NCBI RefSeq assembly: GCF_003334815.1
Contig: NZ_QOWO01000003.1
Direction: 5' to 3' (one strand)
Length of the DNA: 64,000 nucleotides
Source: Escherichia coli
GTDB taxonomy: Bacteria; Pseudomonadota; Gammaproteobacteria; Enterobacterales; Enterobacteriaceae
The position numbers and the translations under genes are program-made. The notes below the pieces were generated by a model. That model ran no database searches and was not told the DNA's origin. It saw only the letters and a list, made by a program, of their open reading frames with translations. Below, piece after piece: positions 48,617 through 48,900 of this stretch. How positions within the stretch are numbered: position 1 is the stretch's first letter; the number at the start of each line of letters is the position of its first letter.

Positions 48617-48900
48617 GCCTGATAAGACGCGCGAGCGTCGCATCAGGCAGTCGGCACTGTTGCCGGATGCGGCGTAAACGCCTTATCCGGCCTACGGAGG
48701 GTGCGGGAATTTGTAGGCCTGATAAGACGCGCAAGCGTCGCATCAGGCAGTCGGCACCGTTGCCGGATGCGGCGTAAACGCCTTATCCGGCCTACGGAGG
48801 GTGCGGGAATTTGTAGGCCTGATAAGACGCGCAAGCGTCGCATCAGGCATCTGGCACCGTTGCCGGATGCGGCGCGAGCGCCTTATCCGGCTTACCGATC
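48617..48900. repeat. Tandem array of about three 100-bp REP-containing units between phnB and phnA
   Basis: GCCTGATAAGACGCGC(G/A)AGCGTCGCATCAGGCA...GCCGGATGCGGCG...CCTTATCCGGCCTAC recurs at about 48617, 48717 and 48817. Confidence 0.85.

Follow-up and report, generated by a model that had tools for sequence, protein, structure and literature searches.

Organization of the yjdN-yjdM locus

The window, by which we mean the whole 64,000-nucleotide stretch of Escherichia coli DNA analyzed here, contains a tandem repeat array between yjdN and yjdM (old names phnB and phnA). In genomes identical to the window, RefSeq annotates the same gene pair, with phnC, phnD, and the other phn operon genes to its left and crfC to its right. 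The intergenic region is 357 bp long and is mostly filled by the array, which is wholly extragenic, with the yjdN start codon (48552) on one side and the yjdM stop codon (48910) on the other. A preliminary description of the window had reported three tandem copies of a 100-bp REP-containing unit at 48617-48900 between phnB and phnA; the flanking genes were confirmed by NCBIfam matches and by the RefSeq annotation of an identical genome, and the coordinates were correct to within a few bases. The features of the locus, together with other elements of the window, are listed in Table 1.

Table 1. Coordinates of the array, its parts, the neighboring genes, and other features of the window
Feature	Position	Strand	Evidence and remarks
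REP325 BIME-2 array, three-unit allele	48616..48895	-	Tandem Repeats Finder; lag-100 identity; three Rfam naRNA4 matches; REP325 literature
yjdN (phnB), downstream gene	48109..48552	-	NCBIfam NF007537, 324 bits; RefSeq annotation
Conserved stretch before yjdN start	48553-48596	-	near-unchanged in most of 37 species
Doublet 1, transcribed last	48616..48692	-	Rfam RF02564, 106.7 bits, full model 1-77/77; MFE = -42.8 kcal/mol, z -5.5
Doublet 1, Z2 hairpin	48617-48648	-	predicted fold
Doublet 1, Y hairpin	48662-48691	-	predicted fold
U linker 1	48693..48715	-	exact-match scan; identical to U linker 2
Doublet 2	48716..48792	-	Rfam RF02564, 111 bits (best score), full model 1-77/77; MFE = -42.8 kcal/mol, z -4.8
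Doublet 2, Z2 hairpin	48717-48748	-	predicted fold
Doublet 2, Y hairpin	48762-48791	-	predicted fold
U linker 2	48793..48815	-	joins two palindromic units tail to tail; transcript reads UACAAAUUCCCGCACCCUCCGUA
Doublet 3, transcribed first	48816..48892	-	Rfam RF02564, 95 bits, model positions 1-77/77; two-hairpin MFE = -42.4 kcal/mol, z -4.4
Doublet 3, Z2 hairpin	48817-48848	-	predicted fold
Doublet 3, l linker	48849-48861	-	
Doublet 3, Y hairpin	48862-48891	-	predicted fold
yjdM (phnA), upstream gene; array is its 3' UTR	48910..49245	-	TIGR00686, 210.9 bits; RefSeq annotation
Candidate sigma-70-like promoter upstream of yjdM	49313..49341	-	CCGACA, 17-nt spacer, TATAAT; consensus scan, 10/12 positions
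gltP-yjcO BIME-2 array	18845-19332	+	113-bp unit, 4.3 copies, 96% matches; four Rfam naRNA4-type matches, 71-79 bits
Isolated Y/Z2 REP doublet	8315-8385		RF02564, 84 bits
Isolated Y/Z2 REP doublet, between phnD and phnE	46060-46140		RF02564, 69 bits
8-bp tandem repeat in phnE	45614-45636		unit CGCCAGCA, 2.9 copies
sraL, Hfq-binding sRNA	937-1077	-	Rfam, 153 bits
SECIS_2, selenocysteine insertion element	21799-21853	-	Rfam, 87 bits
STnc630, sRNA	54558-54723	+	Rfam, 182 bits

Tandem Repeats Finder reported a period of 100, 2.8 copies, 95% matches, and a score of 502 for the array. An ungapped repeat finder placed the copy starts at 48616, 48716, and 48816; copy 2 was 98% identical to copy 1 and copy 3 only 78%, because its final ~20 bases extend into the unique flank. 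When the array was compared with itself, identity at a lag of 100 was 95%, against a mean of 26.2% at the other lags from 1 to 180 (standard deviation = 4.8%, maximum = 41.5%). This value is far beyond chance, and the 100-bp periodicity on which the preliminary description had staked its reading is therefore present. Its count of three copies holds for the REP doublets, but not for full units, since there are only two linkers and the array amounts to 2.8 copies.

Four open reading frames over the array (48701-49165, 48607-48777, 48643-48843, and 48801-49064) had no NCBIfam match; both flanking genes matched strongly. The longest of the four, 48701-49165, runs antisense through yjdM. These results bear out the earlier judgment that such frames are artefacts of the repeat. 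Because 100 is not a multiple of 3, each unit gained or lost shifts the reading frame by one base. In RefSeq, the array is unannotated in most genomes, and the seven-unit strain whose allele was read out carries a hypothetical pseudogene labeled "frameshifted, incomplete".

Structure of the repeat unit and its RNA

On the transcribed (minus) strand, the 100-nt unit opens with the palindromic unit Y, continues through a 13-nt "l" linker to the palindromic unit Z2, and ends in a 23-nt U spacer. The doublet, formed by Z2, the 13-nt "l" linker, and an inverted Y, is 77 nt long, and the 23-nt U linker joins one doublet to the next. All three doublets were matched over the full length of the 77-nt Rfam model RF02564 (naRNA4, nucleoid-associated noncoding RNA 4; CssrE) with scores above its gathering score of 59.5 bits, whereas plus-strand scores at the array were 53-55 bits, under that threshold. 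The two U linkers were the only exact matches of this motif within the 64-kb window, with zero expected by chance.

In per-unit folds, each of the three 77-mers formed two bulged hairpins. Minimum-energy folds of the whole array paired distant units on both strands, with an ensemble frequency below 1%, and we therefore relied on the per-unit folds. Most of the array RNA is predicted to be tightly folded and the U spacers, with 10 C and 2 G each, to be unpaired. The C/G ratio of the transcript strand was 1.1-1.45 across the array vs 0.4-0.9 at the end of yjdM.

We also searched the array for signals of its own. A terminator scan gave no match inside 48553-48909 on either strand; the array hairpins are followed on the transcript by UACAAAUUCCC or by the l linker, with no U run, and thus do not qualify as intrinsic terminators. 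An internal promoter was likewise rejected, as a consensus scan of the array found no sigma-70 match.

Identity of the array and comparison with other BIME-2 elements

The array is the BIME-2 array known as REP325, which occupies the yjdM-yjdN (phnA-phnB) intergenic region and is widely used as a model REP element. It is thus already known: it has been named, is present in Rfam, and has been studied experimentally. Qian 2015 (PMC4550694) placed REP325 between yjdM (phnA) and yjdN (phnB), with transcription from the yjdM side, and described it as 77-bp Y-l-Z2 repeats with identical "U" spacers between them. The preliminary description was right to see a tandemly amplified REP array here, but it missed the REP325/naRNA identity and the six-unit state of K-12 MG1655. 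Recognizing REP325 keeps a known feature from being called a discovery and allows the spurious open reading frames to be dropped.

The assignment follows the BIME-2 classification of Gilson and Bachellier as summarized in Ton-Hoang 2012. The array consists of Y and Z2 units, as seen from the match to the Y-l-Z2 model and from alignment with the other Y/Z2 doublets in the window. These units alternate in orientation in tandem, with Z2 and Y inverted within each unit and three doublets at 100-bp spacing. The copy number varies among strains, and the copies at the locus are well conserved, differing within one allele at few of the 100 positions. The canonical BIME-2 linkers are S between paired units and s, l, or r flanking them (Ton-Hoang 2012). 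In REP325, the head-to-head linker was named "l" and the tail-to-tail linker is not S but the "unknown" U motif (Qian 2015, PMC4550694).

The gltP-yjcO array resembles REP325 in its alternating Y/Z2 units, extragenic position, tandem amplification, and strain-variable copy number. Its unit is 113 bp rather than 100 bp, its head-to-head linker is ~6 nt rather than 13 nt, and its tail-to-tail linker is ~36 nt, in contrast to the locus-specific 23-nt U of REP325. The two arrays had been described as differing in both unit length and sequence. The difference in length stands, and so does that in the linkers, but the palindromic units Y and Z2 are common to both arrays, whose units show 84% mean column identity and are both matched by RF02564. 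In practice, the Rfam naRNA4 family detects any BIME-2 doublet, whether from REP325 or elsewhere.

Comparison of the window allele with MG1655 and other K-12 assemblies

In MG1655 (NC_000913.3), Tandem Repeats Finder counted 5.8 copies, which correspond to six doublets and 12 hairpins in a 657-bp intergenic region; the window has three doublets and six hairpins in 357 bp. The two alleles share the locus, the flanks, the 77-nt Y-l-Z2 doublets with the 23-nt U, and the transcribed strand, and their flanks are 100% identical (616 bp compared on the left side, 505 bp on the right). Doublets 1, 2, and 3 of the window are identical to MG1655 units 1, 5, and 6, and in the numbering of Qian 2015 they are naRNA6, naRNA2 (the same sequence as naRNA4), and naRNA1, respectively. 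MG1655 units 2 to 4, which include a variant U (GGATGG) and two linker variants, are missing from the window. In sequence terms, the window allele is the MG1655 allele minus 300 bp, and a single in-register deletion or expansion of 300 bp would relate the two.

At least 15 complete genomes carry the same three-unit allele and match the window at 100% identity over 20 kb; among them are K-12 EMG2, MG1655-pvir, K-12 GM4792, and isolates from dogs, pigs, cattle, and humans. At this locus, K-12 assemblies are not in agreement. Six units are found in the assemblies of MG1655, DH10B, and DH1; three in those of EMG2 (NZ_CP099588.1), MG1655-pvir (NZ_CP169294.1), and GM4792 (NZ_CP011342.2); and two in those of MC1061 (NZ_CP195014.1) and OV2 (NZ_CP195020.1). 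Either the array is truly unstable over laboratory timescales, or its repeats were collapsed in some of the assemblies. DH10B descends from MC1061. Because the MC1061 assembly has two units and that of DH10B six, some of the unit counts may come from collapsed assemblies.

The window itself might be such a case, its source strain truly carrying six units like MG1655 and the assembly having collapsed them to three. The identity of the flanks with MG1655 and of the three doublets with MG1655 units 1, 5, and 6 would fit a collapse, as would the three units of assemblies labeled as MG1655 derivatives and the disparity between MC1061 and DH10B, but at least 15 complete genomes, assembled independently and from several hosts, share the three-unit allele, and alleles of 4, 5, and 7 units exist with a consistent internal order. 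We regard a collapse as possible but doubtful, and it would alter the unit count only, not the identity of the feature. Because a difference of 300 bp occurs among genomes whose 1.1-kb flanks are identical to those of MG1655, the unit number of a strain should be checked before MG1655 coordinates or the 12-hairpin structure are used.

Copy number across E. coli

Variation in copy number at BIME-2 loci has already been described in general (Ton-Hoang 2012), and a comparison of strains, proposed in the preliminary description as a check, found it here as well. We counted units by using the two 400-bp flanks as a query and converting the span of each match into an array length. Among 59 genomes spaced evenly down the match ranking, 34 had one unit, seven had two, none had three, five had four, five had five, six had six, and two had seven. 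The three-unit allele is uncommon in E. coli. A 40-nt query centered on U matched 2,159 of 5,426 complete E. coli genomes, with 1 to 8 matches each (median = 3), indicating that ~60% of E. coli genomes have a single doublet. In these 5,426 genomes, array size starts at one unit and reaches at least seven; if all U matches belong to this array, the maximum is at least nine. O157:H7 genomes have two units and exactly one U match.

When seven alleles were read out, including that of the window, the first and last units were constant and only the internal units varied. The single-unit allele is a chimera of the Z2 of the first unit and the Y of the last unit, without U.

As a side observation, nine of 6,328 U-linker matches in E. 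coli genomes fell on records labeled as plasmids. These may be mislabeled chromosomal pieces or large plasmids bearing the region.

Origin of the array and history of the U linker

The exact U motif TACGGAKGGTGCGGGAATTTGTAGG had zero matches in a set of 100,044 species with one representative genome each, and no exact copy at another locus was found in the 5,426 E. coli genomes examined. We therefore rejected the idea that U is a general BIME motif. Its restriction to this locus points to growth of the array by local tandem duplication rather than by repeated independent insertion of REP sequences. The array would gain or lose 100-bp units in register, as nearly identical copies recombine unequally or slip during replication.

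Related species provide some time depth. In Escherichia sp. E1V33, a variant U, CGGATGGCGCGAGAATTTGTA, links two units; E. whittamii (L078) has a variant form of U, with the first Y largely deleted; and Escherichia sp. MOD1-EC7003 (L127) has one unit. The presence of a variant U in other Escherichia species indicates that the layout of at least two units with U is older than E. coli, which makes loss the likelier origin of the one-unit allele. The sequences thus favor a deletion between the end units over an original single doublet, which the one-unit allele would otherwise represent.

In E. whittamii and Escherichia sp. MOD1-EC7003, the segment that separates the array from the yjdM stop codon is longer by ~28 bases, with CGATTACGTGCCAATATTACATTGAGCAATACAATCAG in place of the E. 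coli CGATCACAATACAATCAG. This indel adjoins the last Y unit and could aid in polarizing the history of the array.

Intergenic hairpins across Enterobacteriaceae

In our scan, yjdM was directly followed by yjdN in 37 enterobacterial species. In most of these species, a G+C-rich hairpin lies shortly after the yjdM stop codon, often of a species-specific REP type. Hairpins of the GCCCGGT...ACCGGGC type occur in Salmonella, Citrobacter, and Enterobacter, and other palindromes follow yjdM in Klebsiella, Kluyvera, and Leclercia. The intergenic fold had z < -2 in 29 of the 37 species (median = -3.3), with z-scores derived from mononucleotide shuffles, a less strict control than dinucleotide shuffling. 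The conserved position of the hairpin supports a local role that would be exerted at the RNA level.

A separate observation concerns the ~40 nt before the yjdN start, which read ACTACACTTAACTGGCTTCTCTTAACTGAGGTCACCATC on the transcript and are near-unchanged in most of the 37 species, whereas the rest of the intergenic region was not alignable across them. This stretch contains a GAGG ribosome-binding site and TACACT, a possible -10 element, and may be a promoter or leader specific to yjdN.

The additions that this analysis makes to the literature on REP325 are modest: the difference of three vs six units from MG1655, the range of one to at least seven units, a locus-specific U that appears to predate E. 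coli, and the conserved position of the hairpin.

Possible roles of the array

The explanation that best fits these observations lies at the level of the transcript. Probably, the three-unit REP325 allele, situated in the 3' UTR of yjdM within the yjdMN operon, stabilizes yjdM mRNA and attenuates transcription into yjdN, with the size of the array changing by gain or loss of units in register. Transcription would start at the yjdM promoter and cross the array on the minus strand, in the direction from yjdM to yjdN, and each RNA unit would present a Y hairpin, then a Z2 hairpin, and then an unstructured C-rich U spacer. The hairpin stack would shield yjdM mRNA from decay entering from the yjdN side, and it would halt or pause most transcripts before yjdN, partly via Rho. 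The outcome would be a high yjdM:yjdN ratio.

The functional data all concern the six-unit MG1655 allele and come from a single preprint still awaiting peer review (Harris 2026, doi 10.64898/2026.03.23.713779). In these experiments, REP325 stabilized yjdM mRNA and reduced readthrough into yjdN, in part through Rho. Deletion of REP325 in MG1655 lowered the yjdM/yjdN RNA ratio from ~35 to ~1 and raised yjdN 8- to 10-fold, and an operon plasmid without REP325 yielded ~160-fold lower yjdM mRNA. REP325 was expressed as a ladder of hairpin-sized RNAs, and the stabilization of yjdM was seen only with yjdN present. With the full 12-hairpin array, and only then, bicyclomycin increased readthrough from 23% to 39%, while fragments of 2 to 4 hairpins hardly responded; REP325 was not recovered by an in vitro Rho-binding screen (Harris 2026). 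By analogy, we infer that the three-unit, six-hairpin allele of the window would act like that of MG1655. Because the fragments of 2 to 4 hairpins lacked Rho dependence, however, Rho may not act on the six hairpins of the window. Loading of Rho could occur at the C-rich unpaired U spacers, and the composition of the array is compatible with this.

Other REP hairpins that stabilize mRNA or act as partial Rho terminators resemble the array in being stable 3'-UTR or intercistronic hairpins with no U-tract and with a bias of C over G. Familiar cases of such hairpins, for example those of malE-malF, have few palindromic units, whereas the window array has six and that of other strains reaches at least 14. 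REP325 also differs from them in that both roles, stabilization and termination, have been reported for one element.

Another possible role acts on DNA. Y units would be bound and cleaved by DNA gyrase independently of transcription, which would make the array a strong gyrase site, and local supercoiling would be managed in this way; such a role would be compatible with one at the RNA level. The alternating Y/Z2 make-up of the array is that of the BIME-2 elements in which, according to the genome-wide mapping in the available text of Sutormin 2019, gyrase cleavage sites are over-represented, preferentially in Y units, with a signal that increases when rifampicin blocks transcription. Yet only a subset of BIME-2 is cleaved, and the arrays named in that text are sucC-sucB and tldD-yhdP, not yjdM-yjdN. 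As the function of this particular array, gyrase binding seems rather doubtful to us.

The array could also be a selfish or neutral repeat, that is, REPINs kept and amplified by a RAYT (TnpA-REP), with no selected function at the locus and with effects on expression as by-products. The tetranucleotide GTAG/CTAC, which TnpA-REP recognizes (Ton-Hoang 2012), is kept on the four internal palindromic units of the window array and absent from the two outermost, which have GGCG for GTAG at 48612-48615 and TTAC for CTAC at 48892-48895. RAREFAN assigned REP325 to RAYT-associated REPINs, and its copy number is strain-variable, as known for BIME-2 arrays (Ton-Hoang 2012). Against this reading, the locus-specific U implies local tandem duplication rather than repeated insertion, and plasmid-borne REP325 is stable. 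A hairpin has moreover been retained at this position across the 37 enterobacterial species, though from differing repeat families. The selfish REPIN/RAYT reading accounts for the variability of the array but not for the position of the hairpin across genera, and we consider it unlikely.

Very improbable is the nucleoid model of Qian 2015, in which the doublet RNAs naRNA1-naRNA6, especially naRNA4, bind HU, bridge cruciform REP DNA at distant loci, and condense the chromosome. In its favor, naRNA4 has the sequence of doublet 2, which has the best Rfam score in the array, and HU binds naRNA4 with a Kd of ~32 nM; Qian 2015 (PMC4550694) further reported that the RNA co-purifies with HU and that deletion of REP325 decondenses the nucleoid, an effect rescued by plasmid-borne naRNA4. 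The model is contradicted by Harris 2026, a preprint with an author in common with Qian 2015: in its available text, nucleoid size is unchanged on deletion or overexpression of REP325, HU and naRNA4 form no stable complex with cruciform DNA, and contacts between REP elements are absent from Hi-C data. An essential architectural role is also hard to reconcile with the single doublet of ~60% of E. coli and a count that varies from one to at least seven.

For the preferred reading, in which the array stabilizes yjdM mRNA and attenuates transcription into yjdN, strains with one to at least seven units offer a natural dose series relating hairpin number to mRNA stabilization and termination. The number of REP325 units might even be a fast-evolving dial that sets the yjdM:yjdN ratio and the Rho-dependent share of termination, changing often enough to do so among laboratory K-12 lineages (assemblies with six, three, or two units). 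This extension is speculative, and we think it somewhat unlikely. If it is true, strains with one unit (~60% of E. coli) and strains with several would differ functionally in their regulatory state.

Other features of the window

Apart from the two arrays, two isolated Y/Z2 REP doublets in the window exceed the RF02564 gathering score, one of them located between phnD and phnE (Table 1). The phnE gene contains a short tandem repeat of the 8-bp unit CGCCAGCA and is split into two minus-strand open reading frames, 45254-45622 and 45472-46104; in the identical K-12 EMG2 it is annotated as "frameshifted". This resembles the known cryptic K-12 allele, which reverts by loss of one 8-bp copy. Elsewhere in the window, the sRNA STnc630, the Hfq-binding sRNA sraL, and a SECIS_2 selenocysteine insertion element were each detected above their Rfam gathering scores.
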